Origin: Lampris incognitus
Taxonomy: Eukaryota
Direction: 5' to 3'
DNA length: 64,000 bases
Assembly: GCF_029633865.1 (NCBI RefSeq)
Contig: NC_079220.1
Coordinates: forward strand, 16,850,216-16,914,215
Part shown: positions 1 through 63,084 of the stretch, piece by piece
Position numbering within the stretch: the stretch's first letter is position 1
Layout of the letters: each line of letters opens with the position of its first letter
The notes under the pieces: generated by a model
The model's input: the letters and a program-made list of their open reading frames with translations, nothing else
The model's database searches: none
What the model was told of the DNA's origin: nothing
Made by a program: the position numbers and the translations under genes

Positions 1-479
1 TCCCGAAAGTTGCTGTTGGTGGACAACTTGGAGCTAGGCAAAGCAGCACGGACGTGCAAGGGGAACTGACGGAGGAACAGCTGGCCGAAAAGGAAGGCGG
101 GGTCGCACGAACCCAGCATACTCAGCATCTTGTCCATTAGCTCCGATGGCTTGCCGTCTCCTAAGCCTTGCAGCGAAAACAACCAGTCTGCCTACTCCAC
201 CTCTGCTAGCTCAAAAGCCTGCAGCAAGTGTCTTTTAATTGTACCGTACTTATCCACGGGCGGCGGGGCTTGCAGCAGGCCCAATGTCCGTGACGCCGTA
301 GATGTTCCGAGTGCCACCACGACGTAGTAGTACTTGCTCTCATCCACGGTGATGTTCCTAATAGTGAACTGGGCTTCGATGTGAGTGAACCATGCTGCCG
401 CAGCTGTTTCCCAGAAGTCGGGCAGTTTGAGCGTGACGGCATTAGTCACTGCTGCTGCACTGGTAGCTTCGTTCTCCAT
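1..479 (-). mobile_element. LTR-retrotransposon gag-like ORF fragment (Retrotrans_gag-type), truncated at window edge
   Basis: minus ORF 192..479 with motif LPDFWETAAAAWFTHIEAQF...SKYYYVVVAL typical of retrotransposon gag N-terminal domain; ORF runs off the window start. Confidence 0.3.
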
Positions 480-988
480 GGCATTACGTCGGGGTCACCA
501 ATGTGGAGGATGAAAGAAAGGAGACGAGACCACTTCTCCTTTTGACCATACAGCCGTGGGGTCGTTTATGTCCTCCAACTCAAACTAAGTCAGCAGCTCA
601 TTCTGCTAAACCTCAGCCTCGTGTCTACCCACAATACCCTTTGCTAACCCCCGCCCACTGTCTTAAAGGGACCTTCTCTGGCCCGCATGGTGAATACGTA
701 ACCTGAAAGTAGGTCACTACAATATATTATTTTTACCTATACAGCATTTGCTTTTTTTGCCTATAGTGGCACCTAACAAACACCGGGGGGTTGGGGGGGG
801 GCACTCCATTTACAAATTGTAGCCACCAGGGAGAGCACTGCAAAAACCCATGTACAAGTGGCTTCATCTATATCATCTCAGTGAACCGCTTTCAATAAAA
901 TTAACTATCTCTTTTTCATCCCTTTTAGAGAGAGTCCCCCTGCCTTCTCTTCAACAGCTAGACGGTACAGCTTTCTCTGGGTTTCACA

Positions 989-1220: not shown

Positions 1221-1852
1221 GTAAATAAAGTTTATAAAACAGTTTTCTGTCTGCTTCCCCATTCCACTGCATTAAATATTGTCCTCTACTCTGTGATCTC
1301 ACGGTGCTATCATTTTCAAATACTGGGTGCTGTGTGTGCATAATATAAACAGGCAATTGTTAAAGCTACAATCCTGAAGGTTGTTATTTTTTTTATTTAA
1401 TTTATTTTTTATAATTACTGACACCAATGGAAATCTTGTTGATTGCAGCAGTTTTTGAGCCAGCTGGATTCTAGAGATTGATTTGAGATGAAGAGTCGTT
1501 GGTGGTATTACATCAGCACCTTCTCTACTGCCAAGTAAAAAAACAAACAAAACACGGTTGAACCAGGGTTTTATTTTTTGATGTTGTAGTATCTGTTGCA
1601 CAGGTCTTCTATATGCTAGTCCTGTCATATCTTTTTGTTAGCCATGACAGTTTTGCCTCTTTCTTATTAAAGCTTGACCCTACTGGCCTTCTCCTGATGC
1701 ATTTTGCCGCTATGTTGAAGATGTAAAATGCTAACGTAATCTTTTTCCCTCCAATGTCTGACCCAACAATAACCATTAAAATGACCAACGACTAACACAG
1801 TCAAGATTTGGATAGTGGTGGAATTGCTATTGTCTTAAATACGTCAGTGATC

Positions 1853-8584: not shown

Positions 8585-9035
8585 GGGGGCGTCCGGGTAG
8601 CGTAGCGGTCTATTCCGTTGCCTACCAACGCGAGGATCGCTGGTTTGAATCCCCGTGTTACCTCCGGCTTGGTCGGGCATCTCTACAGACACAGTTGGCC
8701 GTGTCTGCAGGTGGGAAGCCGGAAGTGGGTTTGTATCCTGGTCGCTGCACTAGTGCCTCCTCTGGTCGGTCGGGGCACCTGTTCTGGGGGGGCGGGGGAC
8801 AGCGTGATTCTCCCACAAGCTACTCCCCCTGGGGAGGCTCCTCACTGTCAGGTGAAAAAATGCGGCTGTCGACTCCTCATGTATCGGAGGAGGCATGTGG
8901 TAGTCTGCAGTCCTCCCCAGATCGGCAGAGGGGGTGGAGCAGAGACCGGTATGGCTCAGAAAATAGGGTAATTGGCCAAGTTCAATTGGGGAGAAAAAGG
9001 GGGAAGGATAAAAAAAGAAGAAAAAAGTTAAAATG
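8585..9035 (+). mobile_element. tRNA-derived SINE (family 2; head GGGGGCGTCCGGGTAGCGTAGCGGTCTATTCCGTTGCCTACCAAC...GGTTTGAATCCCCG)
   Basis: tRNA-like head with box A/B, conserved body ...gtaattggccaagt.caattgggga, A-rich tail; five copies in the window (8585, 9531, 10018, 24204, 63085). Confidence 0.8.
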
Positions 9036-9530
9036 GTGGATGGGGTGGATGTATAGAAAGCATGAGAAGTGGCTGAATTAAATCTTAGAGGTGACGTTTT
9101 GATGTTTGGATTTGAGAGGAGATCTGAGGGAAAGAGACTCCATGAGGAGGATATGTTTCTACCAGACAAGACAAGACAGGGTCTGGGGTGGGTTGGGGGT
9201 AGCTGGGTGGGGTCTGACTTCAAACAGACTGGTGATGGGTTAGGCAGGAATGAATAAATCAGTCACTTAAAGCTGCAGTCTGCGACATTTCTCCATCAAA
9301 CCTCTCAATGGGCCGTTATCTAATCCATTTGGAACATGATGATGATGTTGTGGTGATCAGTTGGCCCCACAATCAGTTTTCCGGTGGAACAGTGTTGTCA
9401 TGTGGTTGGATGTAGGAAACAGAGAAACAGACCTGATAACAGACTACAAACAAAGTGTAGCAGCAATTATCGCTGGTGTGTGGTCAGCTAAGCAGAAAAC
9501 AGTTCCCACCCTTATAAAAATGGATCCCCG

Positions 9531-10015
9531 GGGGCGTCCGGGTAGCGTAGCGGTCTATTCCGTTGCCTACCAACACGGGGATCATTGGTTCGAATCCCCG
9601 TGTTACCTCTGGCTTGGTCAAGCGTCCCTACAGACATAGTTGCCCGTGTCTGTGGGTGGGAAGCCGGATGTGCGTATGTGTCCTGGATGCTGCACTAGCA
9701 CCTCCTCTGGTCAGTCAGTCAGTCAGTCAGTCAGTCAGTCAGTCAGTCAGTCAGTCAGTCAGTCAGTCAGGGCGCCTGTTGGGGGGGGGGGGACTGAGGG
9801 GAATAGCGTGATCCTCCCACATGCTACATCCCCCTGGTGAAACTCCTCACTGTCCGGTGAAAAGAAGTGGCTGGCGGCTCCACGTGTATTGGCATGTGGT
9901 AGTCTGCAGCCCTCCCCGGATCGGCAGAGGGGGTAGAGCAGCGACCGGGACGGCTTGGAAGAGTGGGGTAATTGGCCATATGCAATTTGGGAGAATAAAA
10001 AAAAAGGGGGGGGGA
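9531..10015 (+). mobile_element. family-2 SINE copy carrying an internal (CAGT)n expansion
   Basis: same head/body as 8585 copy; (cagt)15 at 9706-9767 replaces the short ggtcggtcgg segment of the other copies. Confidence 0.8.
9706..9767. repeat. (CAGT)n tetranucleotide microsatellite, about 15 units, inside SINE
   Basis: cagtcagtcagt... run seen directly. Confidence 0.95.
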
Positions 10016-10017
10016 GG

Positions 10018-10470
10018 ATCCCTGGGGTGTCCGGGTAGCATAGCGGTCTATTCTGTTGTCTACCAACACGGGGATCCCGGTTCGAATCTCTGTGTTGCCT
10101 CCGGCTTGTTCGGGCGTCCCTACAGACACAATTGGCCGTGTCTGCGGGTGGGAAGCCGGATGTGGGTATGTATACTGGTCGCTGCAATAGCGCCTCCTCT
10201 GGTCGGTCGGAGCGCCTGTTCAGGGGGGAGGGGGAATAGCGTGATCCTCCCATGCACTACATTCCTCTGGCGAAACTCCTCACTGTCAGGTGAAAAGAAG
10301 CAGCTGGCGACTCCACGTGTATCGAAGGAGGCATGTGGTAGTCTGCAGCCCTCCCCGGATCAGCAGAGTGGGTGGAGCAGAGACCGGGATGGATCGGAAG
10401 AGCGGGGTAATTGGCCAAGTACAATTGGGGAGGAAAAGGGGGGAGAAAAAAAAAGAAAAGCAAAAGCATC
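10018..10470 (+). mobile_element. family-2 SINE copy, head-to-tail tandem with the 9531 copy
   Basis: starts 2-3 bp after the A-rich tail of the previous copy; same orientation. Confidence 0.8.
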
Positions 10471-18406: not shown

Positions 18407-19107
18407 AGGGGGTCTGGCTCCTCACAGTTAATAAAAAAAACCCTCTCTCATTTGAATTTTAAATTCAGATAAATTATTAAGAGACTCTCCCACTGTGGCT
18501 CGACGAGCGCAGGGCGAGCGAGAGACAGAGAGCGGGACATCAAAAGGAAGAGGAAAAGCAGGGGAGCTCAAGGAAGGAGGAGGACGGGTAGAGTCTATAG
18601 GAAGAGGAACGACAAAAAGCCTAAACAATGGCAGAAAAGAAAAGGACGTTTCCAAGACTGAACAGCAGCGTGTGTGTCGCGCTGCGTGTGTGGAGGGGGC
18701 AGATGTACCGTTGGTCATTGACAAAATGGAAGCAAACAAAAGGAGAACACACCACCGGCGTTCAGCACAGTGTCACGAAAAGACTGGACACCAAAGCACC
18801 AAGTGAGCCGCACACACCCCGTACAGGACAGAGCGGTGCCGTGACCAACAGGACATATACACACAGATAGGAGGCAAAGAAAAATACAGACAGACAGGTG
18901 GACAAACAGGCAGACAGGCAGGCAGACAGGTGGACCAGCAAGAGAGAAACCCAAAGAGGGAGAGAAACAGAAAAAGAGGAAGACATGAAGACAGAGATGT
19001 AGATAAAGGATGTGTGGGGGGGGCAGTGTGTCATAATGCAGTTGAGCGTGGTTAGAGAGGAGAAGCGAGGAGGGGGGGGTCACACTGTAAAATGTTAGGT
19101 AGGCAAT

Positions 19108-19228
<121 letters not shown>

Positions 19229-19662
19229 AAATGACTGTATCAAAGCCTCACACAGATGGAGAAATGTGTTCACCATGCTTCTCTGTGTGGAACTGGGCGT
19301 GACTGCATCGGATGTATTTGGAAAGTCGTTGGTTTGATGTTCCTGGCAAGTTCATTTAAGGATATAAAGCCATATTTTAATATATTTTCACGCCAATTCC
19401 TCTTCCCTCGCTGTTCTCTGGTGTGTGTGTGTGTGTGTCTGTGTGTCTGTGTGTGTGTGTATGCCAGGTTTTCCTGTCAAATGCCTCCATTAGGATAGAA
19501 AAACCTGAAACTACCTACCCTGTGGGCACATTTTATGGGTCCCCATGAAGAAAATGGCCCCATTTTAGGGTTAGATTAGAATTAGGATTGGGTTAAGGTT
19601 AGGGCTAAGGGCTAGGAAATGAATGTAGTCAATGAGGGGTCCCCACAAGTACAGGGTGACAT

Positions 19663-19773
<111 letters not shown>

Positions 19774-20995
19774 AAGGCCAACCAGCCCCTCCATCCATCT
19801 GATGGGAGGTAAACACTCCACATTGTGGCGTTTCTCTGGGAGAGCATAATCGGCTGGTTGGTTGGTTGGTTGCTTGGCTTGTTGTGTGGGGGGGGGGTAA
19901 GAGGGGAGGGGGCTTGAGGCAGAGAAGGGCTCTCCGGAGAAAAGGCGTTTCAGAGAAAGTGATGCACACAGCCACTTTGCGGTGAAAAAATGCTCTGTAA
20001 TGACATAGCCACATAGCACCGCTCAGGAAAAGCTTCTCTCTGTGTGTGCAAGGGTTACTTGATGCAACACGCAGGAAAGATGATGAGAAGTTTTTGTTGT
20101 TGTATTTTTTTAATCTTAATTAAACCAGATAAACATCTGTGCTTTTTTCCCCCCAGCACTCCCCGGTGTCACATTTGCATTGCTGCATCCCCCCCCCCCC
20201 CCCGGCCGGAGACCTGCCCAGTAGTAAATGCCTTTTAAAGTGACTTTCTGTTGCTTCTGCTTGTGTTAAACAGCTTCTTTCCAAAGGCGCTGTATGAATA
20301 AAGTTTATTTTCATTATTATATTATTATTAAAACCACAACCTCCTGCTGCCGGGCGGCCTCAGCAGATCCGAGGAGGGCTGGGTGCCTTGCTCATGGGTG
20401 TCTCAGTGGGATTTGTACCATGAGCATGAAGTGATATGAAAGATATCGTGTGCGTATGTAAAACGCCCCGAACTTTTAATGATTTCCCCTTTTATTTCTG
20501 TTATTTATCCACATATTATGCAGCAGAAACGACACGACTATTTTCCTCTGCCTTTTTTTTTTACATGTATTTTTCTTACTTCTTCCATTCTACTGCCCCC
20601 CCCCCCAAGCTGGCGGCAGACTTACTACAGAATATAACATCCCTCCACCTCTTGTGGAGTATAACCATTAAGTCAAGTCAACTTTATTTGTATAGCCCAA
20701 TATCTCAAATTACATTTTTGCCTCAGTGGGCTTTACAGCAACACAACATCTTGTCCTTAGACCCTCTCATCGGATAAGGACAAAGTAAAGACATGTCATT
20801 GCTTTGACATAAACTCCCGTGAACACTCACAGATGAGTAAATATGGGTCTAACCAAATAACATCATGTTCACTGAAAGAACAACATAAAAGCAGCTAACT
20901 CAAGAGTGGGAGTAGACTGCCCCAGCTCTGACCTGACCTATCCCGTAATCTCTCGAGAGGTCATTGGGGCACTGCTGTTGAATCCGCAACCAGTC

Positions 20996-22215: not shown

Positions 22216-23788
22216 TCATTGTGCCTGGTCCTCAGGCTCTGTATATGGTGGCTGAGTTGATTGTTCAGCTCTGTAGCCATCAGCGTCCCAGTTGGCCTTG
22301 GGGTTTTGCCGCTGGTCTTCACTCAGCGGGTGGTGCCTGTCTGGCTCTCTTCTTAGTAATAGGTGGTCCACATGATGTCTAAGCACCTGGCTTTCCACCT
22401 TCACTCTGTAGGTGAGAGGACATGTGCTGGTGACCCAAATGTGACCCAAATGTACCCATTTCTTATGGCTTGTGAAATCTCTTACCCATACTTCTGCACC
22501 TGATGCCAGTGTTCTGGTTGGCCTGGTGCTGTTTTTTCTACAGATCATGCGCTCTTGGTTCTGGAATACTTTAGCATGAGCATGCAGTCTTAGCAGGTCA
22601 AACCTGGTTCTGACAGGACGGCTGAATAAAATCTCTGCTGGTGAGCTGTCTGTTGCTGCATGTGGTGTTGATCTGTATACCGCCAAGAACCTTGATATGC
22701 GCATCTTTAGTGATCCTCCTGATCCCACGGTTTTCTTCAGGGCCCTCCTAACTGTTTGAACAGCTCTTTCAACTAACCCATTTGTGGAAGGCTTGTAGGG
22801 GGCAGATGTTATGTGTTTTATGCCATTGGATGTCAAAAATCCCTTAAACTCAGCACTCGTGAAAATTGCTGCATTGTCTGACACGACAGTATGGGGAAAG
22901 CCATGAGTGCTGAACATCTCCCTTAGGTGCTCAACTGTTGCTGCTGACATGGTTACTCGGACAGGGCAAACTTCAAGCCATTTCGAATGTGCGTCTACTG
23001 CTATCAGGAACATCTGCCCCAGAAATAGACCTGCATAGTCTATGTGAATGCGCGTCCATGGTTTACCAGGCCATTCCCAAGGTGAGACTGTTGTATACCT
23101 ATTGACACGTGGTACAGGCTTGCACTTTCAATTCTATTTCATTATCCAATCCAGGCCACCACATATGAGCTCTGGCTGTTGCCTTCATTCTCGAGATTCC
23201 TGGCTGTGGTTCATGAAGCTTCTCCAGCAGTATTTCACGAGCATGTGGTGGCACCACAACACAGAGTCCCCAGAGCAGAATGGCATCTTCTACACAGAGC
23301 TCAGCCTGCCTTCTGAAGAATGGACGTAAAACCTCAGCTGGGAAGGTGGCAGGCCATCCCTCTTTGACAAAGCGACACACTTTAGCAAGCAAAGGATCCC
23401 TACAAGTCCACTGCTTCAGCTGATGACTAGTAATAGGAGCAGTCTGAAGCTGTTTCAATAAGTATGTCAACTTGGTTGGCCTGTGTGTGTCCATGGGCAT
23501 TTCTGGGAGGGGAAGCTTGCTCAGGCAATCAGCGTTTGCAATGGAGGGTCCTAGCCTGTATCTGAGGACATACTGATATTGAGCAAGTAGTAGTGCCCAG
23601 CACTGAAGGCACGGTGATGCAGCTGGCTGAATGTTTTTAAGCTCACCTAGTAGACCCAGTAGGGGCTTGTGGTCAGTTTGGATGGCGCAGTTACAGTCAT
23701 AAACACATTGGTGGAACTTCTTCACAGCAAAAATTCCGCCTACACTCGAGTGATGTACCTTTGCCTTTGCGTCGCTCACGTAGTTCAC
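22216..23788 (-). mobile_element. LTR-retrotransposon pol fragment: RNase H end, integrase HHCC zinc finger and DDE core (Gypsy or BEL/Pao-type), frameshifted
   Basis: ORF 23099..23788 contains IQTDHKPLLGLL and ...HMWWPGLDNEIELKVQACTTCQ; ORF 22216..23013 contains IAVDAHSKWLEVCPV...TVVSDNAAIFTSAEFKGFLTSNGIKHITSAPYKPSTNGLVERAVQTVRRALKK (integrase core); no LTRs identified. Confidence 0.7.
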
Positions 23789-24203: not shown

Positions 24204-24975
24204 CGGGGGCATCTGGGTAGGGTAGCGGTCTATTCTGTTGCCTACCAACACAGGGATCGGTGGTTAGAATCCCCGTGTTACCTGGTCAGGCGTTCCCACA
24301 GACACAATCGGCTCTGTGCATAACTGTAGTCCACTGACTTCCGGTTTCTACTGCAGCGGTCATACCAGTTTCCTGTTTGTTGCCGTGTGCTATTGACAAT
24401 GGCATATTTTTCGCGATGCCTGCAAGATTTACCATGGATAAATGTCAACGACATGCACAGAACCAGGAAATGGGTGAAAAGTTTCAAGTTGTATCAAGTT
24501 ATGACCGGACAGACAGACGGACATAAAAGTTTGTCGACAATTCTGTGCATGTCGTTGACATTTATCCATGGTAAATCTTGCAAGCATCGCGAAAAATATG
24601 CCATTGTCAATAGCACACGGCAACAAACAGGAAACTGGTATGACCGCTGCAGTAGAAACCGGAAGTCAGTGGACTACAGTTATGCACAGAGTGGATTGCC
24701 TGTGTCTGCGGGTGGGAACCCGGATGTGGGTATGTGTCCTGGTCGCTGCACTAGCGCCACCTCTGGTCGGTCGGGGCGCCTGTTCAGGGGGGAGGGGGAA
24801 CTGGGGGAAATAGCGTGATCCTCCCAAGCGCTACGTCCCCCTGGTGAAAGTCCTCACTGTTAGGTGAAAAGAAGCGGCTGGAGACTCCACATATATGGAG
24901 GAGGCATGTGGTCGTCTGCAGCCCTCCCAGGATCAGCTGAGGGGTGGAGCAGCGACCGGGACGGAGAAAGAGGTA
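24204..24975 (+). mobile_element. family-2 SINE copy interrupted by a 390 bp foldback MITE
   Basis: SINE head 24204-24300 and body 24691-24975 are contiguous in other copies; intervening sequence is a hairpin element. Confidence 0.75.
24293..24690. mobile_element. foldback / MITE-like insertion: about 155 bp near-perfect terminal inverted repeats around a 78 bp loop
   Basis: left arm ctctgtgcataactgtagtccactgacttccggtttctactgcagcggtcatacc...catgcacagaa (24293-24447) and right arm 24540-24690 are reverse complements with one mismatch; generates the mirrored ORFs 24278..24487(-) and 24387..24818(+). Confidence 0.7.
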
Positions 24976-26479: not shown

Positions 26480-29280
26480 TTGAGATGGTCTACCGAGACC
26501 CGCTCCGGCTTGCCCCCCATGTCCACCACAAAGTTCTGAGGCCCCGCTTTCAGGACGCGGGGCCCTGCAGCCCCCCTATGATGGGGGGCTGCAGGGTTGT
26601 ACAGTGGCTGTCATGGCGGATGAAGACCTACCTGGCTGACAGCAGATTCTTGGTCACACAGGACTGAGGGACGCAGTGGTGAGATGTAGGGATCAGAGCG
26701 AAAGCGTTGGCACTGTCCCAGGCCACAGCCCGATGAGAAGCTGCAGAACAGGGGGCCACAGTGTCCGGGAAAAACTACCCCGAGACACGCAGCGGCTGGC
26801 CGTAAACCAGCTTGGCAGATGAGGACTGGAAGTCTTCCTTGGAGGTGGAGCGAAGGCCGAGCATGACCAACGAGAGGCGGTCAATCCGTGAGGCTGGCAC
26901 GAAGAGCGGCCTTCATAGACTGATGAAACTGCTCACAAAGTCCGTTGCCCTGTGGGTTTTACGCCATGGTAGAGTGGAGCTTCACCCCCAGCCCCGTCGC
27001 GACTGCAGTCCAGAGCTCGGACATGATCTGTGGGTCCCTGTCGGAGTGGAGGTCAGCTGGCATGCCAAAACGGGCCACCCAGGACCCAATGAACGCCCGG
27101 GCCACTTCAGTAGACATGTTCGATGACAGGGGAACAGCTTCCGGCCACCTGGTGGTCCTATCCACCATGGTGAGAAGGTGAGTGAACTCGTGGGAGGGGG
27201 ACAGGGGGCCCACCAGGTCCACATTCATATGGTCAAAACGCCTCTCGGGCACAAGGAACGGTGCCAAGGGGGCTTTGGTATGACAGTGTACCTTGGAACG
27301 CTGGCACGCCACGCAGAAGTCAGCCCAGGTCTTGACGTCCTTGCTGAGGCCGGGCCAGGCAAACTTGGCCCCCATCAGCTTAGTGAATGCCTTCACACCC
27401 GGGTGGGATAGGCCATGGATACCATCAAAAACACAGCGTTGCCAGCCGGTGGGCACCATGGGGCAGGGCTGGTCCATGGAAACGTCGCAGAGGAGCGTGG
27501 CATTGGCGCTGTCAAACACCATATCCTCCAACCGCAGTCCGTAGCAGCCATCCGATTGGCCTGGATGTCCGCATCAGTGGCTTGGTCTGCAGCCATGGCA
27601 GCGTAATCGAGTCCCAAGTGAACGGACCCTGCCACCCCCCGGGAGAGGCAGTTGGTGACCAAGTTGTCCTTGCCAGCCACGTGCCGGTTGTCCGTGGTAA
27701 ACTCCGAGATGGCAGAAAGCTGACGCTGTTGGCACCCAGACCACGGCTCGGAGGACTTGGCCATGGCAAATGTCAGTGGGTTGTAGTCGACGAAGGCAGT
27801 GAAACGGCAGCCTTCCAACAGGAAACTGAAGTGTCGGGTGGCGAGGAAGAGACCCAGGAGCTCCCGGTCGAAAGTGCTGTACTTCCTCTCGTTCTCTTTG
27901 AGCTGTTTGCTAAAGAAGGCAAGGGGCTACCAGGCACCGCCCACCCACTGCTCGCACACCGCCCCGACCGCATAGTCAGAGGCATCGGTCATGAGGGCAA
28001 TCAGGTCGGTGGGGGATGGGATGCGCCAGCTCAGCGTTGGCCAGCGCAGCCTTGGCATCATCGAAAGCTTCATCCATCCCTGAGGACCAGTCTACCTCGC
28101 CCTTGGTTTCCTTGCCCCGCAGGGCCTCGAACAAGGGCCGCATGCGGTGAGCTGCGCGGGGAATGAACCTATTATAAAAGTTCACCATGCCCAGGAACTC
28201 CTGCAGGGACTTCACGGTGCGAGGGCGTGGGAAACTGGCAACGGCGTCCACTATAGCGGGAAGCAGAACGACTCCTTACTGGGAGATGCTGTGGCCGAGG
28301 AAGTCAATGGACAACAGGCCGAACTGGCACTTGGCTGGGTTGACTGTGAGTCCATGCGTACTGAGCCGCTCAAACTGCCGGAGGTGCATCAGGTGCTCCT
28401 CCGCAGACGCGCTGGCCACGAGAATATCGTCCAAGTAAACAAACAAGAACGGCATATCCCGTAGCACAGAGTCCATAAGCCGCTGGAACGTCTGCGCTGC
28501 CCCCGTGAGGCCAAAGGTTATCTGCAGGAACTCGAAGAGTCCAAACGGTATGATGACTGCTGTCTTGGGCACGTCCCAAGGGTGGACCAGTACCTGGTGG
28601 TAGCCCCGCACCAAATCCACTTTGGAAAAGATGTTGGCCCCTGCCAGGTGAGCGGAGAAGTCCTGTATGTGTGGGACAGGGTACCGGTCGGGGTTGTGGC
28701 GTTGTTTAGGTGATGAAAATCGCCACAGGGACGCCAACCGCCGTCAGCCTTAGAAACCATATGCAGGGGGGAGGCCCAAGGGCTGTCTGAGCGGCGCAGA
28801 ATGCCGAGGCGTTCCATGATGGCAAACTCCTCTCTGGCAATCGCGAGCTTAGCAGAGTCGAAGCGCCGAGCACGTGCGTAGACCGGGGGGCCATCGGTGG
28901 CAATATGGTGCTCCACGCCGTGCTTGGCCACCGCTGATGAGAATGTAGGTGTGGTGAGGTCAGGGAACTCTGCGAGCAGTCGTTGATACGTATCTCCGGC
29001 AGCGAGCATGTTTGACAGGCCGAGTGTTCCTGCACCTCCCAGTGTGCATGGGTATGTACCGAAAGAGACAGCATCGATCAAGTGACAGTTCGTAACATCC
29101 ACCAGCAGAGTGAAGGCACACAGGAAATCTGCGCCCAGGAGGGGAACCGACACCGCGACCATAACAAAGTCCCAACCGAAACGCCACCCGCCGAAACACA
29201 CCTCCATATACTTGGTACCGTAGGTATGTATGGGCGTGCCAGTGGGTGCAATGCTGGGTTGGAATGAAAACCTGCATACA
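26480..29280 (-). mobile_element. Ty3/Gypsy-like LTR-retrotransposon pol (RT-RNaseH-integrase), frameshifted/degenerate; LTRs not identified
   Basis: minus ORFs: 28518..29207 RT N-term (VEHHIATDGPPVYARARRF...SPWASPLHMVSKADGGWRPCGDFHHLNNATTPDTY-type), 28276..28737 RT core with FVYLDDILVAS, 27976..28251 connection (LQEFLGMVNFYNRFIP), 27393..27818 RNase H (FVDYNPLTF), 26959..27531 integrase HHCC+DDE, 26188..26529 integrase C-term GKPERVSVDHLKP. Confidence 0.75.
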
Positions 29281-31118: not shown

Positions 31119-31437
31119 CCTGGCGGCCTGTCCAGGGTGTCACCCCGCCTGCCGCTCAATGATTGCTGGGATAGGCTCCAAGTTGGACCGGCGGGTGTAT
31201 TACATGCTTTGGCGTGATACCGGGCTGGGAGAGGACTAATCATAAAATCAGCAAGTGTTGTGTTGTGTTGGAATCCCAATTCTAACCTTCAACTCCAAAC
31301 CCAAGTACTAACCGTATAATAGACCGTTGAAGAAGTTAGGACTGACCAAAATGTCTCTCTGTTGGTCCTCTCAAAAATCTTCTTTAGTGTTGTTTTGCGG
31401 CGGTTGGAAAAGTCATATCGAACACACCTCGCTGTTC

Positions 31438-31438
<1 letters not shown>

Positions 31439-31530
<92 letters not shown>
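31439..31530. repeat. (CA)n microsatellite about 46 units
   Basis: direct. Confidence 0.95.
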
Positions 31531-31535
<5 letters not shown>

Positions 31536-31750
31536 GTAATTATGTTTGTGGCTACTACCACCTTGTGGCAGGCAGTTTCTCTTAGAGAAAGCTGTCGCCA
31601 TCCAGCAGATGGCGACACTTCTTCTTTTGCGTCTTCTGCTTCTTCTTCTGCGTTTTCTGTTTCTTGTTCTGCTTCTGCATCATTTTCCATATATGTGTTG
31701 CGCGTCCTCTTTCCCTGTGATAGCTACTGTACCATTTATGGTTTCTCAGA

Positions 31751-31937
31751 ATGACAAAACTACAGCTGTTGAACGCTTATTTAACGGAGCGTTTGGCGGA
31801 GGTGGTGAGGGAGATCCTGGACGTGGTGGGAGACACGGTGACGGAGTACCAGGAGGAGGCGGCCCGGACTCAGCGGGAGAACGAGAGCTTGAGGAAACAA
31901 CTCCGGGATCTTCTCCTGCTGGGGGACGAGACAGACT
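31751..31937 (+). CDS. first coding exon of a fish FiNZ-type zinc-finger gene (N-terminal FiNZ-like domain), donor GTGAGT at 31938
   Basis: MTKLQLLNAYLTERLAEVVREILDVVGDTVTEYQEEAARTQRENESLRKQLRDLLL matches the conserved teleost ZNF N-terminal pattern M..LQ.L...V.ERL.AA.EEI......T..EYEEE; ends at consensus donor (phase 1). Confidence 0.5.
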
Positions 31938-32650: not shown

Positions 32651-34039
32651 CCTGCAGAAAATGGGTCTGAATGCTGATAGCTGAAGGAAATTGCCGAAGC
32701 AATGCTGAAATTTGCTGTAAAAACAGCTGAATTGTAAAAGTAAAACGAGGAAGCTGAAAGCTGAAGGAAATTGCTGAAGCAATGCTAAAAAATTGCTGAG
32801 TGTTATCAACTGAAAAATCACAGTTGAAAAAATGTAGGTGAAACAGCTGACAGGAAAAATTATATACTGCCTAGCTGGGAGTAGAATTGAAATACATTGA
32901 AACTTTTTAAAAGGAAATTATGTGTATTAATATCAGACGTATGAAGTGTACCATGAAAAAGATGAAGGTTTGAATTTTTTAACATTTGAAATGGAAAGAT
33001 TAAGTCTCAGTTGTGTGTGTGTGTGTGTTTGTGTAAGTGTTTGGTGTGGGTGTGTAAGTGTAGAATCGGCTAGAAGAAACCGAAAGTAACTGCCAAATGT
33101 CTCCTGACTAAATCTGTACAAAGACATATTTTCTGTGAAATCTGTTGAAATGTGTGTAAATCCACGTGGCTTGTATGTCATGTGGAAACACTGTAGCAGG
33201 ACTTTGACAAGAAATGTCAGTCAAGTGTTTGATCCAAACCAGACATCAGAGAAGTCATTTAATCAGCTGTGTGCCACACTGCACTCAGAGGTTGCCATGG
33301 CAATTGTCAGTGCTTAGTTTCTCCTGAGTGAGACAGAGACAAAAGTGAGAAGTTGCTCAGTGGACCCCCTCAAAAGTCTTCCCTCAAGTAAAAAACCATA
33401 ACTCGTGTCAGCAAAGTTACGAGACCAACAAAACCACAAGAGTTTCCTGCATGTCTTTTTCAAGATTGGTGTTCCTGGTGTCAAAAATGCGGCCGCATGA
33501 ACGAGTTGAAGACGGGGGAGTTTTCAGTTTTTCCCTGAAAATGCGCTCCTCAATTTGTGTTACAGTCTATGGAGCAGCTGAGGCTCCTCTTGTTGCTTAA
33601 AGCGCCAGTTTTCAAAAACCGTAAGTCATACAGTTTTAGGAGTCACACTGTGTGACACAGCACTTATTTGTCTATATTTCTACTTAAAATTGAGTGTTAG
33701 AAGTGAAAGATGTAGAAGCAGGAAGAGCAGAAGCAAAAACATTTTAAGGGAGGCAGAACAGCTGAAGACCTCTCAAATACACACCCATTATTAACTCAAA
33801 AACTGTCAGAAAAAGCATAAAACTTAAACTGAGATAAATGAAAAACTATAAACGATATCAAAAATCTCAATGTAAGCTTCATAGCAGAAAGTCGTGACCT
33901 GTTTAAATGACGTTACTAGGTGAAAGTATGCCAACGTAGTTACATTTCAAAGAGCAGAAGGTTTTTGAGGATTTGAACATTCTCTCCATTCATTTGAATG
34001 AGAAAAAAATTCATAAAAAGCTTAATGTTTTGAACGTAT

Positions 34040-34705
34040 ACACTACCGTTCAAAAGTTTGGGATCACCCAAACAATTTTGTGTTTTCCATGAAAAGTCAC
34101 ACTTATTCACCACCATATGTTGTGAAATGAATAGAAAATAGAGTCAAGACATTGACAAGGTTAGAAATAATGATTTGTATTTGAAATAAGATTTTTTTTA
34201 CATCAAACTTTGCTTTCGTCAAAGAATCCTCCATTTGCAGCAATTACAGCATTGCAGACCTTTGGCATTCTAGCTGTTAATTTGTTGAGGTAATCTGGAG
34301 AAATTGCACCCCACGCTTCCAGAAGCAGCTCCCACAAGTTGGATTGGTTGGATGGGCACTTCTTTGAGCAGATTGAGTTTCTGGAGCATCACATTTGTGG
34401 GGTCAATTAAACGCTCAAAATGGCCAGAAAAAGAGAACTTTCATCTGAAACTCGACAGTCTATTCTTGTTCTTAGAAATGAAGGCTATTCCATGCGAGAA
34501 ATTGCTAAGAAATTGAAGATTTCCTACACCGGTGTGTACTACTCCCTTCAGAGGACAGCACAAACAGGCTCTAACCAGAGTAGAAAAAGAAGTGGGAGGC
34601 CGCGTTGCACAACTGAGCAAGAAGATAAGTACATTAGAGTCTCTAGTTTGAGAAACCGACGCCTCACAGGTCCCCAACTGGCATCTTCATTAAATAGTAC
34701 CTGTT
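34040..34705 (+). mobile_element. Tc1/mariner 5' half (long TIR + transposase N-terminus), left arm of a head-to-head palindrome
   Basis: terminal tacactaccgttcaaaagtttgggatcaccc; ORF 34420..34707 MARKRELSSETRQSILVLRNEGYSMREIAKKLKISYTGVYYSLQRTAQTGSNQSRKRSGRPRCTTEQEDKYIRVSSLRNRRLTGPQLASSLN = Tc1 transposase HTH region; antisense of 34200-34330 encodes Tc1 C-terminal-like LWELLLEAWGAISPDYLNKLTARMPKVCNAVIAANGGFFDESKV. Confidence 0.75.
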
Positions 34706-35243
34706 AGAGCCTGTTTGTGCTGTCCTCTGAAGGGAGTAGTACACACCGGTGTAGGAAATCTTCAATTTCTTAGCAATTTCTCGCATGGAATAGCCTTCAT
34801 TTCTAAGAACAAGAATAGACTGTCGAGTTTCAGATGAAAGTTCTCTTTTTCTGGCCATTTTGAGCGTTTAATTGACCCCACAAATGTGATGCTCCAGAAA
34901 CTCAATCTGCTCAAAGAAGTGCCCATCCAACCAATCCAACTTGTGGGAGCTGCTTCTGGAAGCGTGGGGTGCAATTTCTCCAGATTACCTCAACAAATTA
35001 ACAGCTAGAATGCCAAAGGTCTGCAATGCTGTAATTGCTGCAAATGGAGGATTCTTTGACGAAAGCAAAGTTTGATGTAAAAAAAATCTTATTTCAAATA
35101 CAAATCATTATTTCTAACCTTGTCAATGTCTTGACTCTATTTTCTATTCATTTCACAACATATGGTGGTGAATAAGTGTGACTTTTCATGGAAAACACGA
35201 AATTGTTTGGGTGATCCCAAACTTTTGAACGGTAGTGTATATA
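34706..35243 (-). mobile_element. inverted, shorter copy of the same Tc1 5' half (right arm of palindrome)
   Basis: reverse complement of 34040-34575 almost base-for-base; identical ORFs on opposite strands (34304..34516 + vs 34762..34974 -; 34420.. + vs 34664..34858 -). Confidence 0.75.
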
Positions 35244-35675
35244 TTAGAAAAAAAGTTGAATGGAAGCAGAAATGTCCTTAAAAAGCGGAACATTTGATAG
35301 TTGAATGGTTTCTGTAGCACAAAGTATGCAGAAGTAGTTAGACGCCGAAAAACGTACGGAAGAAGAATAAGAAATAGAACAATAGTGTGAATGCTGAATC
35401 AGCACTGCTTTTATTTGATATGTTACACATGGCTTTGGGTAGCAGATTTTAGTCTTTGGTAAAATCTCTGATACCTATACTCCATTTTAGCCTGGTATCG
35501 ACCAACTATCCAATAACAGTGTAGGTATCAGTGCATTCCTAAAAAAACCCCACTGAACTTCGGGATTTTACAGACGTTACACAAGTAAGGAAACAAGGTA
35601 GAGCTGGGTAATATTGACATGAAATATGAGATTAGATATGGTCTGGGATTTTTATCATTAATAACATGATTTAAC

Positions 35676-36160: not shown

Positions 36161-37365
36161 CCCCCCTCCCAAAAAAAAAATCGGGGACCTTAAAGGACCC
36201 GAAACTAACAGGCACAACAACAAAACAAGCAAGACACAAACAAATCAAACCAAATAATTTTTTTTTAAAAAAACCAAAATACTAGCCTGACCTGGGACAA
36301 CCTCCGCCTCCTCCGGTCACCTCCCCTAACGGACCCCCACCCCTCAGCAACCAAGGGCCCTAGGAAGCAAATGTAAGAGAGGCGAGAGAGCCAGAATGAC
36401 GGAGACAGAGGAGGTACGGAGACAGAGACAGAAGGACAGTACAAACACCACACGGAACACAAATACTAGCCGTACCCTAACCCAACTCAGGGAGCAGGGG
36501 CACGGGAAAGAGCATCTGCCACAAAATTGTCTAGCCCCCTAATGTGACGCATGTCCAAGTGGTATGCCTGCAAAAACAGGCACCACTGCATGACCCTCTA
36601 ATTTGGGCACAGCATGGACCTCAGGAACACAAGAGGGTTATGGTTTGTATAAACCACTAACGGAACGACCCCTGACCCCACATAAATCTAAAAGTGGATC
36701 AGCGCCCAGATCAACACAAGCGCCTCCTTCTCGATCACCGAGTAGTTTAGCCTGGTTGGTGCTGAGCTTTTTAGAGAAAAAACTAATGGGTCGATCCACC
36801 CCCGAACCATCTGCCTGCAGCAGCACAGCACCAGCCCCAACGTTGCTGGCGTCTACCTGGAGTGAAAACAGAACATCGAATCTAGGTGCAGCTAGAACTA
36901 GACCCGAGGTCAAAAGTTGTTTAACATTCTCAAATGCCAGCTGACATGATCGATCCCACTCAAATTTGGCCTTAAACTTAAGCAAACTAGTCAGGGGAGC
37001 CACAACCATGGAAAAGTTCCGACAAAACCCACGGTAGTAACCCACCAACCCTACAAAGCATTGAAACTCTTTGTTGGTCGATGGGACAGGGTACAATTCA
37101 ATTCAAAACTTTATTGCAGACTCAGGGTCCAAGACAGACAAAGACAAATAGATAAAAGACAAACCCTGGACAATACACAGAGTAAACACACTAAAATCAC
37201 ATAAATGGAACAAGTCAGTGTGTTATAAGAAGGCAGCTATACCAGTGATCCCACTGCCGGGATTGGTAGCGTGTGGCACTGAATCTTATATTAGTTAAAC
37301 TCTTGATGATTACATTATTAGAGTCACTGAGCCGGTAAATACATTTATACATGAGCTTTCAAATC

Positions 37366-49932: not shown

Positions 49933-51419
49933 GGCCCACCCTAGAGCTCTAAAATATGGTTTACCTAAAAGTCAATTTTACAGATTAATTTGCCATTCTG
50001 ATGAAGACAATAGAGAAGGCCCTGGAGATGAAACAGTGCTTCCTGGAAAGGGTTTATTCTATTCAATGTATAGACGAGGCTTATGATATTGCTCCACCCA
50101 AGCCTTAGTCTGACCTATTGGGGAAAAAGTTTAAAAAAGAAAAACGTTAGAAAAACTCAGTGTCTTGTATTATTATTTACTATCCTCAGGCTCACATTGT
50201 TAAGAACACCATCCATTGGTATATCTTGGCTAGAGTTGGGTCCAATCCAATATCGATTTCGGATGCTGATACTGACGTAACTCACTCATTGCCTATCAGA
50301 CTGACAATACCAAGGCACGGCAGATCCAGATTCCATAGTCTGCTGTTTTTATGAATTATAAATATGTAATGTAATTTTAAGCCCATAGCCAAAGTGGTAT
50401 ATCTAAATTCAGGTAGTATGACGTGTTTTGAGTGTGGGGACATGGGACACAAGTGAAAACCCACAAAAAGTAAACCTGGAGTCTCCTAAACTCCATAGTA
50501 ATTCGGAGAAAGATAAAATGGCCTTCGATGACGTAGTAACTGTATCAGAGGGACCCATGGTTTGTGGAGTTAGTGGCGCTGCTGCAACCTGTCACCAGGA
50601 GGCAGCAGGAGGATGACGATGAAATTGAGTATGATTCTGATTCAGATGGTCCGGTAACAGATTCCCAGCGACCAACAAGTGAACTGTACACTTTGGAGGA
50701 AATCAATATCTTTTTTGGGTGAAACTTGGCAAATCTGTCACAGTAATTATTTCCAGACAACTAAATTTCTCAAAACTGTCACAGCACTGCAAAAGCTTGT
50801 GGGGTTTGATTTATTAGATACAAAAAAAAAAAAGCATTTAAGAAAGCATGTCACCACCTTAAGAAAAAAATCACCTGTTCACAAGAAAGGGAAGGAAACT
50901 AAAAGACGACGAAACTAAAAGATGTTATTATTGGCTGGGCCGCAACAGCGGGGCTAGCCGTACTCATGCTGTTGTCCGTGAGTGAGCAACTGAGAGATGG
51001 AGTTTCACCATTGGTCGACAGCCGAGTTGGAGTTTCCCCGGTGGCTCTTTCAAAATGAGTCGACGTGAACAGTTTTCTATTGCATCGTCAGCAATAGAAC
51101 ACTGCAACCACGTGGTCTGAATGAGGATTTTGAAATTAGGCTTTTGCTATGAATAAATTATGAAAGATTCTATATGTTCTATGTCAGTCATCCCCAGAGA
51201 CTGGATCGCCACCCACAGGGTTGCTGGAGATTTTATTTGGGTCGTCAAATAAAATCTCACACGATGAGTTTTCAAATTTGCAGAATTTCTTTGCAAGTCT
51301 TTTATTCTAGATTTATATCTGCAGTACACCTTTGAGCCACATGAGGGAGCTTGTTGGTATTTCTACAGCTCATGGTTTCTGTATGGTGGCCCTGATCCGT
51401 AGTATGGTGGCCCTGAGGG

Positions 51420-54620: not shown

Positions 54621-54841
54621 AAGGACTCTGACCGAAAGCTCGCAAATAAGACTCTTACACTAATATGAATTTGCAGATTCTCTTTTTATTCAGTTAGATT
54701 TAAAAAAAATTTTTTTTTAGCTCCAGCAACCTAGGCTAAGTCAGTTACTCATGAGCAGTGTATTTTTCTCTATTTATTATTAATGTTAAAATGATGTTAA
54801 ATCAGTGCGTCCTGTTAAAATTGTTGTTATTGTTATTACAG

Positions 54842-55941
54842 GGGCTACCAGGTCCACTATCCTTTTGGAGGCTCCTGAACAGCAGCAGTCCAGTAAACAA
54901 GAGGTGAGGTCTTCTTTAGCGGAGCCAGACTCGACTCTGAGCCAGCTCAATGAGGCACCGGGAAGGGCAGTTTGTCATTCTCATGAACAGGTAATGACTG
55001 TTAAACCGCTTCCAACGGAGAGCGAGACACCATCTGCACAGCTCCCCCTGGACCCCGAAGATAGACAGGAGCAAAATGACCAGCCACAACCGAAGCCTAA
55101 ACCTGAGCCTCAGCAGCAGGCTTTTGGAAATGTCCCATCTTGCTCCTATCAGACCTCTGTAAATACTGTCTCTGCCTCCGACCCTGACATACACACTGAC
55201 CCTCAACAGTGCATGGTTCAAACTCCACCTTTTCCCATAGTTCAAACACAGATAAAAGCAGAACCAGAGGAGTATGAGGTGTTGGCAACTAATGCTGAAA
55301 GTCACACAGACTCTGTATTCTCAGGCTCTTTGCCAAATCCTGGTCCCACACACAACCTCTTGGAGGTTTCTGGTTTTGGAAATGTACTGGATGCAGACAG
55401 AGAGGGGGCTGCCTGTGTAGAACGTGAAGTTCATCAAACCACGAAGAAGAGCACTTCGGATAGATTGCCTTTGAACACTGCTGTTGACAGTGACGTAGTA
55501 GCTGGTCAGAGGTGCGAAGCCAGTCATTCCTGTCCCCGCTGCAAGGAGACATTCGGCCTCGCTTCTAGCCTCCGACTGCACTTGGAGCAGAAGCGTTACG
55601 CCTGCGACTGGTGCTGCAAATCCTTTGCCCAGGTGACTGACCTACGGCGCCACCTGCGCACCCACACTGGGGAGAGACCCCATCGCTGTACCTTCTGCTA
55701 TAAGAGCTTTAGCCAGAGAGGCAATCTGAAGAGACACCTGCGCATCCACACAGGGGAGAGACCGTACAGTTGTCCTTACTGCTATCGGACTTTCAGTGAT
55801 GGGGACACCATGAAGAAGCACAAACGCACTCATTTTGGAGAGAGGCCCTACCGCTGCTTGCATTGCTCAAAGACATACGCTAGTGCCAGTGGATTGCAGG
55901 TTCATATAAAGAAAGATATGTGCTTCGTGTCCAACACGTGA
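54842..55941 (+). CDS. C2H2 zinc-finger protein, large 3' coding exon (acidic/SUMO-motif linker + 5-6 C2H2 fingers), acceptor AG at 54840-54841
   Basis: ORF 54805..55941; fingers [105 protein letters not shown] with TGERPY linkers; no in-frame ATG at a plausible start, polypyrimidine tract + cag acceptor at 54839-54841; motif IKAEPEE. Confidence 0.75.
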
Positions 55942-59965: not shown

Positions 59966-60790
59966 TGTTTTTGTTAGCTGGATTATTGAGTGTGCATAAA
60001 GACACGTCACTCAGTTAAACTCGGATGTGTTTTTTTAAAAGCCTGGATGACGTGAATTCAGATGAATCCCTGACCTCATTTGTTCTGAAAGCTTTATTAT
60101 CCACTTTCTATTATTCCCCATCTGACATTCCAATGCAAAAAAAAAAAAGCATAGTAGGCTCTGCAAGGCTATGAAAACCTCCTTATTAAGGGTTAAGGGT
60201 TACGTGAGCAAAGGAGGCAGGTATCAGGAATCAGGAACATTTATTTGTCATTTCATTTAATGCGCTTGCACACATGAAATGAAACGAAATATGGTTTCCC
60301 CCAGCCCACAGCAGTGCAACACAAACACAAAAACACATCCAAAAACTACAAGAACACACACATATATATACAAACTACAAAAACACATATCCAACTTATA
60401 AAAAAAGCAGTGGTGATGCATTATTTTCCCAATAAGTTCCCAAAAAGTAACTGTATGCTGGAATAAACATCATAAGTTCCTAAAAAGTAACTGTATGCTG
60501 GAATAAACATACACATGGGAGTTAAATTTAATTTGTAGTGATGCTAATTGATAATTAAAACCAGCTTGTTGATATCACACTTCCAAATAGACTGCTTTGC
60601 TCTGTAGAGCTGAAAAAGATCTTACCCCTTGCAAATTTTTTTTTGTAACAGTGAAAATTCAAACATTTTTTAAGACATTTTAAAATAGCTAAATGTTTTG
60701 GGAAGACTGAATTGTAGAAATTGAGAACAGACTTGTTACATTTTATATTGTGTTCAACCAAGGTCTAGAAAAAGCAGTGCAAAGCATATA

Positions 60791-62006
60791 CACTCACCGG
60801 CCACTTTATTAGGCACACCTGTCCAACTGCTCGTTAACGCAAATTTCTAATCAGCCAATCACATGGCAGCAACTCAATGCATTTAGGCACGTAGACATGG
60901 TCAAGACGATCTGCTGCAGTTCAAACCGAGCATCAGAATGGGGAAGAAAGGTGATTTAAGTGACTTTGAACGTGGCATGGTTGTTGGTGCCAGACGGGCT
61001 GGTCTGAGTATTTCAGAAACTGCTGATCTACTGGGATTTTCACGCACAACCATCTCTAGGGTTTACAGAGAATGGTCCGAAAAAGAGAAAATATCCAGTG
61101 AGCGGCAGTTCTGTTGGCGAAAATGCCTTGTTGATGCCAGAGGTCAGAGGAGAATGGCCAGACTGGTTCGAGCTGATAGAAAGGCAACAGTAACTCAAAT
61201 AACCACTCATTTACAACCGAGGTATGCAGAAGAGCATCTCTGAACGCACAACACGTCGAAGCTTGAGGCAGATGGGCTACAGCAGCAGAAGACCACAACG
61301 GGTGCCACTCCTGTCAGCTAAGAACAGGAAACTGAGGTTACAATTCGCACAGGCTCACCAAAATTGGACAATAGAAGATTGGAAAAACGTTGCCTGGTCT
61401 GATGAGTCTCGATTTCTGCTGCGACATTTGGATGGTAGGGTCAGAATTTGGCATCAACACATGAAGGCATGGATCCATCCTGCCTTGTATCAACGGTTCA
61501 GGCTGGTGGTGTAATGGTGTGGGGGATATTTTCTTGGCACACTTTGGGCCCCTTAGTACCAATTGAGCATCGTGTCAACGCCACAGCCTACCTGAGTATT
61601 GTTGCTGACCATGTCCATCCGTTTATGACCACAGTGTTCCCATCTTCTGATGGCTACTTCCAGCAGGATAACGCGCCATGTCATAAAGCTCGAATCATCT
61701 CAGACTGGTTTCTTGAACATGACAATGAGTTCACTGTACTCAAATGGCCTCCACAGTCACCAGATCTCAATCCAATAGAGCACCTTTGGGATGTGGTGGA
61801 CCGGGAGATTCGCATCATGGATGTGCAGCCGACAAATCTGCAGCAACTGCGTGATGCTATCATGTCAATATGGACCAAACACTCTGAGGAATGTTTCCAG
61901 TACCTTGTTGAATCTATGCCACGAAGGATTAAGGCAGTTCTGAAGGCAAAGGGGGTCCAACCCGGTACTAGCAAGGTGTACCTAATAAAGTGGCCAGTGA
62001 GTGTAT
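60791..62006 (+). mobile_element. second copy of the compact Tc1-like element (same family as 38043-39268), transposase with about 2 frameshifts
   Basis: TIRs tacactcaccggccactttattaggcacacc / ggtgtacctaataaagtggccagtgagtgtata; ORFs 60938..61243, 61224..61514, 61448..62050 together span a 346-codon Tc1 transposase. Confidence 0.85.
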
Positions 62007-63084
62007 ATTGTGTGTTTGTCCTTTGTGCAACACGGAGTATTTGTTATTGAAGTGCAGTTTAAGGTCTACTGCACGTTTGCGTTTTCAAAGGCATTTTTCC
62101 ATTATGTAAAGTAGCAGAATCAGTGGTTCGTATGAAATACTAAACAGCTATTTGGTTTTTCAAGGTCATTTCGCTAATTTTCCAAATCAGACAATGATGC
62201 ACTAGGAGCCAGTAGGAAATGTCTGTCATTAGTCTTCTATTTTTTTTCCTGATACAAATACTGACAGGCATAACACTTTTCTCTCCAAATAAAGATTTAT
62301 GCCAATCAACTGAAATTAGTTCTGCGTACGAAAGTTAAGAATACTCTGTTTTCTCTGAATCTGCATGACTGAGTGGAGATCACCTTGGCCCAAATGCAGA
62401 ATAATAACCAATACAAAAAATACTCAGTCATCTCTGCATTAAAAGGTTAAGACATTTTCTGCTATCTTCTCTAAAAAGCATTAAATGTTTTATTCAAAGT
62501 CGAGTTTTTCAGATTAAAGTGGACACAATTATTCCCTTTTTTTAACGTTTCAATGCGAGAGAAAAAAAGCTACACAACAAGGAATTTAATGATGACACAT
62601 GATAAGAGGATCTGGAATTGGCAACCAGTAACACAGTATTCACAAAACAGGGTTATGCCACTATTCATTTCCCTTAACGCCATAGTTGATACACTGAAGG
62701 GTGTGTAAAGGGTCAGAAGGTGTCTTACCTCTATATATCAGGAGATGGCAGTAGACATATGCAGTAACATTGTACTAGCTCGAGTCGCCCATCTTCTGTG
62801 CTGACATTTTAATATGCTTACAGAATTAAGGATCAGGCGCTGCCTTTAATGTTGGATTTGTCTGCGGTGAAAATGAACATGGCAGTGGTTTAGCAGCTGG
62901 ATAAAATCAGGTAACGTGTCTTGAACAAAATTCACTCCGACTGAATTCCACTAAAGAAAAACTCTGACTTAACTTTTAATGATGAGGTGGTTACCAGGCT
63001 GTTTTTGGGCCAGTAAAGTGTTCGGTTTTGAATTACAGTGGGTTTGCTAATGTCAAAGTCTAGGTCAGTGTGGCATCTACTGTA

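Follow-up and report, generated by a model that had tools for sequence, protein, structure and literature searches.

The window, a stretch of 64 kb analysed as a whole, carries at 34041-35237 an element of 1197 bp (CACTACCG...CGGTAGTG) that is built as a near-perfect palindrome and is flanked by TA on either side. Its parts are given below in window coordinates, with J1, J1' and J2 naming the internal junctions.

34039-34040, no strand: TA target-site duplication, left; TA stands before all 17 family termini
34041-34364, minus strand: left outer segment, the canonical 3' end reversed (3' TIR, 3'UTR, stop and the last ~52 codons in antisense)
34362-34364, no strand: J1, chimeric junction of the inverted 3' end with the 5'UTR, microhomology CTT (3 bp)
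34362-34701, plus strand: left inner segment, the last 58 bp of the 5'UTR and transposase codons 1-94
34420-34707, plus strand: truncated ORF of 95 codons with ATG at 34420, the N-terminal helix-turn-helix DNA-binding region of the transposase
34576-34702, plus strand: unique central loop, 127 nt of the left arm that lack a mirror copy, from the repeat search and base comparison
34702-34702, no strand: J2, the centre junction, where the arms meet bluntly with one orphan T between them
34703-34916, minus strand: right inner segment, the mirror of 58 bp of 5'UTR and transposase codons 1-52
34914-34916, no strand: J1', the mirror copy of J1 at the symmetric position
34914-35237, plus strand: right outer segment, 3' end oriented as in the canonical element (last ~52 codons, stop, 3'UTR and 3' TIR)
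35238-35239, no strand: TA target-site duplication, right; likewise TA as before all 17 family termini

An inverted-repeat search paired 34028-34575 with 34703-35250 (548 nt each, 99% complementary, 127 nt apart), and base-by-base comparison set the true symmetry at 34037-34575 against 35241-34703, complementarity being gone directly outside and inside these limits. The arms with their TA (34039-34575 and 34703-35239) differ at 1 of 537 bp, a T at 34079 against a G at 35199. TA directly precedes 17 of 17 family termini, namely the two ends in the window and those of loci L001-L012, and the element is therefore delimited at 34041-35237; the two extra symmetric bases outside each TA are owed to a target site of the TATATA type (predicted sequence of the empty site ...GAACGTATATTAG...). 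The terminal 22 bases, CACTACCGTTCAAAAGTTTGGG, occur exactly twice in the window, at the two element ends and in opposite orientation (0.00 expected from shuffles), and are identical at both ends to the termini of L001-L006, L011 and L012. The preliminary description of a near-perfect 1.2-kb palindrome was thus accurate, as was its account of an asymmetric centre with a right arm some 125 bp shorter, the left arm extending 127 nt further; the centre junction that it quoted, ...taaatagtacct-gttagagcc... (hyphens mark joints here and below), is right to the base. The end coordinate that it gave, 35243, lies 2-4 bp too far, the last base being 35237 for the element and 35239 for the TA duplication. 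As single-stranded DNA, the inner 1001 nt fold into a single uninterrupted hairpin (-573.5 kcal/mol), and Tandem Repeats Finder reported no tandem repeats in 33900-35400, so that the arms are without tandem subrepeats. The flanks hold a 20-nt direct repeat (33923-33942 and 35321-35340, 85% identity), 116 bp before the element and 82 bp after it, which is probably due to chance.

The window is dense in transposable elements, with fragments of retrotransposon integrase, reverse transcriptase (RT) and RNase H, a second Tc1-like family, repeats and microsatellites, and the palindrome, lying in this TE-rich stretch, is not obviously within an exon. Retrotransposon pol fragments (rve, Integrase_H2C2, RVT_1, RT_RNaseH) are found on the minus strand at 22216-23788, 26959-29207, 36638-37096, 39205-39633 and 42802-43287. 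The second Tc1-like family is present as two inverted copies, 38030-39269 and 60786-62018, which lie ~21.5 kb apart and are 96.9% identical over 1.24 kb, with DDE_3-bearing ORFs at 38077-38586 (minus strand) and 61448-62050 (plus strand); this inverted pair could mediate inversion of the intervening segment. Another self-complementary stretch, 24295-24712 (436 bp), matches its own reverse complement at 85% identity; the repeat family of which it is a member is also present as three tandem units of ~470-500 bp at 8585-10457 and as a further copy at 63100-63483. A tandem duplication of a 258-bp unit lies at 49420-49939 (49420-49677 and 49682-49939, 98.8% identity), and long dinucleotide microsatellites at 18715-20019 and 31362-31754 appear as SLSL.. 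and HTHT.. runs in ORF translations. A 378-codon ORF at 54805-55941 ends in a cluster of C2H2 zinc fingers; its best match, at only 63% identity, is a 'zinc finger protein 768-like' of Centroberyx affinis, with other acanthomorph fishes next in line, and this assigns the window to an acanthomorph teleost.

What are the arms of the palindrome made of? DNA of relatives was taken from the regions around protein matches and from a scan of metagenome contigs, which yielded full-length or nearly full-length copies (L001, L003, L005, L007 and L008) besides several partial ones. L003, a complete canonical element at 97-1718 of the JGI metagenome contig Ga0208618_1013911, is 98% identical and has an uninterrupted ORF of 340 aa with HTH_Tnp_Tc3_2 and DDE_3 domains; its Tc1 family is possibly young or, in some fish, still active. 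The stretch L003 97-1718, flanking TAs included (1622 bp, 97-98% identical to the arms in the window), serves here as the canonical reference, and every segment of the palindrome maps onto the canonical relatives L001, L003, L005, L007 and L008. With RC for reverse complement, the layout in canonical coordinates reads TA - RC(1622..1298) - J1 - (357..696) - T - RC(570..357) - J1' - (1298..1622) - TA. At the left, window 34039-34363 is the reverse complement of canonical 1622-1298, the outer segment with its TA being 97-98% identical to the minus strand of L003 1394-1718 and L001 1187-1512 and reading ...KKCPSNQSNLWELLLEAWGAISPDYLNKLTARMPKVCNAVIAANGGFFDESKV* in the reverse frame; the inner segment is 98.2% identical to canonical 357-696 (L003 453-792). 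At the right, the inner segment matches canonical 357-570 on the minus strand (98.6% identity), and 34915-35239, the outer segment with its TA, matches canonical 1298-1622 (96.9% identity), with the stop codon at 35073-35075. Each arm is accordingly a chimera, in which an inverted but otherwise ordinary 3' end is fused to the tail of the 5'UTR and the N-terminal codons. Both ends of the element are of the 3' type, with the subterminal sequence GATCACCCA and without the 5'-type GTCACTTA/ATT, so that a layout with one 5' and one 3' end is not what is found. The element is without a genuine 5' terminus, ~355 bp of the 5'UTR and canonical 697-1297, which, judged by eye, comprises the whole catalytic region.

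This composition changes the picture drawn in the preliminary description, which had taken the arms for Tc1 5' halves. The Tc1 origin is upheld by the matches to canonical Tc1-like relatives, and the antisense piece of transposase C-terminal coding sequence that had been placed between terminus and ATG is indeed there, as the reverse-frame translation shows. The outer ~324-326 bp, however, are the 3' end, lying on the opposite strand in five relatives; the attribution to the 5' region holds for the inner part, with its 58 bp of 5'UTR and N-terminal codons, and fails for the outer part. That antisense coding sequence sits between the terminus and the ATG of the arm would also be expected if the family had very long TIRs, as had been suggested; these would measure ~380 bp and reach into the end of the transposase gene, and the arm would simply be a normal 5' end. 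The canonical copies leave this idea with next to no probability. Their 5' and 3' ends have ~27 bp in common (29 bp with the flanking TA) and then diverge, the 5' ends continuing with GTCACTTA/ATT and the 3' ends with GTCACCCA; in L002-L004 and L006-L008, the ~27 bp of the 5' end that are as in the 3' end give way to an unrelated 5'UTR of ~410 bp. The terminal motif has no internal copy either, the terminal 18-mer not recurring inside L003 at up to 3 mismatches. The family differs in this from Tc1 elements of the Sleeping Beauty IR/DR type, whose inverted repeats of ~200 bp or more hold an inner second transposase-binding repeat.

The truncated transposase N-terminal ORF reported earlier is present: it runs for 95 codons from the ATG at 34420, is ended by a TAG created at the centre junction, and matches the Pfam models HTH_38, HTH_29 and Sigma70_r4_2 at or above their cut-offs, with matches to HTH_32 and HTH_SB (the Sleeping Beauty HTH model) below cut-off. 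A protein search returned 289 relatives of this ORF, the best of them, P0001, at 97% identity. On the minus strand, an ORF at 34858-34667 runs through J2. Pfam gave no match to DDE_3 in the palindromic copy; since only codons 1-94 (1-52 in mirrored form) and the last ~52 codons remain, the copy is non-autonomous.

At J1, the window reads GGGCACTTCTT-TGAGCAG, and its two templates read GGGCACTTCTT-GCG (canonical 3' piece, reverse complement) and CCTTCCTT-TGAGCAG (canonical 5'UTR), so that they overlap by the 3 bp CTT; with a one-base bulge permitted, the overlap grows to 6 of 7 bases. At J2, the sense template reads TACC-CGCAAA and that of the mirror arm CTCTG-GTTAGAGCC, and the window reads TACC-T-GTTAGAGCC: the left arm ends in ...AGTACC, the right arm starts with GTTAGAGCC, and the T at 34702 fits neither template. 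Either one nucleotide was inserted here, or a C at a CpG later changed to T. J1 and J2 are both free of transposon ends and of TA. The chimeric junction J1 occurs in both arms, which bears out the earlier proposal of an internally rearranged progenitor.

Furthermore, the arms share 13-14 differences from L003 and L001, 4 of them genuinely private substitutions, and differ from each other at 1 of 537 positions. From the shared J1 and the private substitutions it follows that one arm was copied from the other or that both were copied from one template. Either this copying was very recent or the arms were homogenised later by gene conversion; the near-identity of the arms could thus come from gene conversion between them instead of from youth. 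With these features, the recent origin by aberrant repair or template switching that had been put forward gains support. In a window so dense in transposable elements, the palindrome might instead consist of two independent truncated copies inserted side by side, head to head. This has hardly any probability left, as the rare chimeric J1 and the private substitutions are common to both arms, which differ at that single site, and the centre has neither a TA nor a terminus where one insertion would meet the other.

Long perfect inverted repeats assemble poorly, and a foldback chimeric read, or two copies wrongly collapsed or joined, might also produce a palindrome of this kind. Such an artefact is very unlikely here. 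A foldback read would ignore element boundaries, whereas the symmetry ends exactly at the transposon termini and their TA, with unrelated unique flanks on the two sides; J2 offers no homology that could mislead an assembler, the arms differ by one base, and similar structures occur in independent assemblies, as described below.

The feature is a foldback derivative, non-autonomous and internally rearranged, of a Tc1-like (Tc1/mariner) transposon of ~1.62 kb in a teleost genome, and it probably arose by abortive gap repair. We infer the mechanism solely from junction anatomy. An element would have been excised, leaving a double-strand gap that was filled by error-prone synthesis-dependent repair. 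A nascent strand may have been primed on the 3' TIR and copied inward, and J1 would have been picked up by a template switch at the CTT microhomology, unless it was already present in the template. The second arm could then have formed in two ways. It is possible that both broken ends were primed on the 3' TIR of a J1-bearing template and that end joining then linked the two nascent strands, which are not complementary. Alternatively, a single nascent strand may have switched at J1, snapped back at J2 and copied itself outward, with a final annealing in the TIR. J2 would represent a homology-free joining of strands that left one extra T. Gap repair fits because microhomology is short or absent, a single nucleotide is inserted, the centre is asymmetric and both ends derive from the same TIR. 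The single-event model needs three template switches, and an intermediate element with J1 only was not found among the collections searched. The product has intact termini and is predicted to be movable in trans by the intact transposase of the family.

Excision of hAT elements and MULEs passes through a hairpin intermediate. To our knowledge, excision of Tc1/mariner elements has no hairpin stage. Aberrant self-transposition is a further way in which a transposon can rearrange itself, and autointegration by transposase is known to yield internal inversions of Tc1-family elements (PMC3952818). In that reaction, a transposon end is joined to an internal TA, the TA is duplicated, and the products are circles (PMC3952818). 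Joints of an end to an internal TA, and circles, would thus be expected, but J1 and J2 contain neither a transposon end nor a TA; this anatomy is inconsistent with autointegration, which was rejected and, like other forms of aberrant self-transposition, is barely credible for this element.

Did the palindrome form at this locus, or did it arrive ready-made? It may have formed elsewhere and transposed whole into a TA site, as one copy of a multi-copy palindromic non-autonomous family. This reading competes over the place of formation only and shares the same mode of formation. The perfect family termini with their TA duplication, the TATATA-type site that holds the element, and a different palindromic derivative of the same lineage that has clearly been mobilised, with the same junction between different flanks (L009 and L010), speak for it. 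Against it, a second copy of J1 or J2 was not found, a weak negative as the collections do not include the source genome, and the 64-kb window holds no further copy and no other piece of the palindrome's Tc1 family. We regard arrival from elsewhere as possible but rather unlikely.

The look-ups behind this negative covered the junctions as DNA and as protein. Exact look-up of the junction-dependent ORFs (95 aa and 64 aa) gave none on record in collections without the source genome. A protein search with a 56-aa ORF spanning J1 returned no candidates, but it missed the canonical halves of the ORF as well and so carries no information. Of the k-mers drawn from J1 (GGGCACTTCTTTGAGCAGATTGAG) and J2 (AATAGTACCTGTTAGAGCC), the J1 24-mer has no match in the JGI metagenome contigs (which do not include the source genome) and the J2 19-mer none in viral contigs. 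The J1 18-mer has 68 matches in prokaryotic genomes, where ~17 are expected by chance under uniform base composition, and 4 in viral contigs; none of these 72 loci is Tc1-like, and the matches in prokaryotic and viral contigs are due to chance.

The lineage contains other foldbacks. Among 120 listed homologous ORFs, 15 run from sense N-terminal sequence into antisense element sequence, and ~10 of these share one junction. In L009 (637-1751) and L010 (403-1443), copies of an amplified palindromic Tc1 derivative from ENA sample ERZ14207152, canonical 1-764 is joined to the reverse complement of canonical 849 downward. The two copies have the same junction, which is also the one found in ~10 of the 120 ORFs, but unrelated flanks and a mutual identity of 86.5%; it follows that this derivative was mobilised and became amplified. 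The head-to-head joins of L011 and L012, from the same ENA sample, are different ones and bring at least two further independent junctions. All of these derivatives have in common with the element in the window the terminal sequence, the TA duplication, the head-to-head inverted duplication and an asymmetric, homology-poor centre inside the N-terminal coding region. They differ from it in that they consist of two genuine 5' halves, with 5'-type ends, and are without J1, whereas the element in the window has two 3' ends; they are also older, being 75-86% identical to the canonical sequence with arms 91-95% complementary. The combination of two 3' ends with an inner J1 is found in the window element alone among the foldbacks seen in this lineage. 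The structure of two 5' halves assumed in the preliminary description is that of L009 and L010, L011 and L012. No description of a palindromic derivative of the L009/L010 type was found in the open-access literature, nor anything relevant on fish Tc1 foldbacks or on the terminal sequence; a salmon GH paper mentions a palindromic Polinton, which is not a Tc1.

The closest described counterpart is the MITE Goblin of Aedes aegypti, derived from the Tc1/mariner element Ozma (Yang et al. 2013, PMC3814204). Both subterminal regions of Goblin are the right end of Ozma in unequal lengths, the junction shows microhomology and a single inserted T, and it was proposed to have arisen when SDSA gap repair switched template between TIRs and was completed by end joining (PMC3814204). 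Goblin and the element in the window are alike as TA-flanked Tc1/mariner derivatives with inverted subterminal regions from the same right or 3' end, unequal arms, and microhomology or a single inserted T; in the window, these features take the form of same-end subterminal regions, a 127-nt asymmetry of the arms, CTT at J1 and the orphan T at J2. In contrast to Goblin, which is miniature and multi-copy with TIRs of 54 bp, the element in the window measures 1197 bp, has arms of 537 bp, and possesses a second junction, J1, at which a stretch of 5'UTR with N-terminal coding sequence is attached in inverted orientation. The presence of the same junction at several loci, the mark of a multi-copy family, is seen for the L009/L010 type; for J1 and J2, no further loci were found in collections without the source genome.

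With its 1197 bp and a single copy in the window, the element is not a MITE in the usual sense of a few hundred bp and a high copy number. It has the whole-element hairpin and the non-autonomous state in common with foldback-type MITEs of nematodes and others, such as PALTA1_CE and CeleTc2, some of which have been linked to Tc1/mariner-type transposases (PMC3814204). Those MITEs are short, high-copy and without recognisable coding remnants, whereas the element in the window keeps such remnants. Of the features of Tc1/mariner elements, it has the TA duplication and the family TIRs and lacks a transposase with a paired-like HTH domain and a catalytic DDE_3 domain. As in the Foldback (FB) and Galileo elements of Drosophila, long inverted arms make up most of the element. 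The arms of FB and Galileo consist of tandem subrepeats, and these elements have other transposases and longer target duplications. In the window, by contrast, the arms have no tandem repeats and the target duplication is TA.

Mu killer of maize, an inverted partial duplication of MuDR, belongs to another superfamily and another kingdom (PMC3440606). The likeness lies in an inverted partial duplication of a transposase gene that closely resembles canonical copies, among them one with an intact ORF; the identity of the 537-bp arms to these copies is 97-98.6%, and a read-through transcript of the element would form a long hairpin matching active elements. For Mu killer, transcription, small RNAs and silencing have been demonstrated (PMC3440606), whereas the present element is known from its sequence and is without most of the Tc1 promoter region. 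It is improbable that the element silences its family through hairpin RNA in the manner of Mu killer, or that the product of its ORF stub rivals the transposase at element ends, as might be supposed by analogy.

The feature is ordinary transposon debris with a well-precedented origin, and represents no new system. Its interest lies in being a clean and young case, with both junctions intact, of the passage from cut-and-paste transposons to long-armed foldback derivatives, the proposed precursors of hairpin-type MITEs, the origin of which is poorly documented in vertebrates. The other foldbacks in the same Tc1 lineage, one of them amplified, suggest that fish Tc1 elements repeatedly undergo same-end priming or snap-back in the course of gap repair. 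Locally, a 537-bp near-perfect inverted repeat is likely to cause assembly trouble, hairpin extrusion and instability; the predicted side effects are extrusion as a hairpin or cruciform and, upon transcription, long double-stranded RNA. In the improbable case of action in the manner of Mu killer, read-through transcription entering from outside the element would yield a perfect hairpin RNA of 537 bp over the 5' and 3' coding ends of the transposase, and such an RNA could seed small-RNA silencing of a possibly still active Tc1 family in the vertebrate germline.
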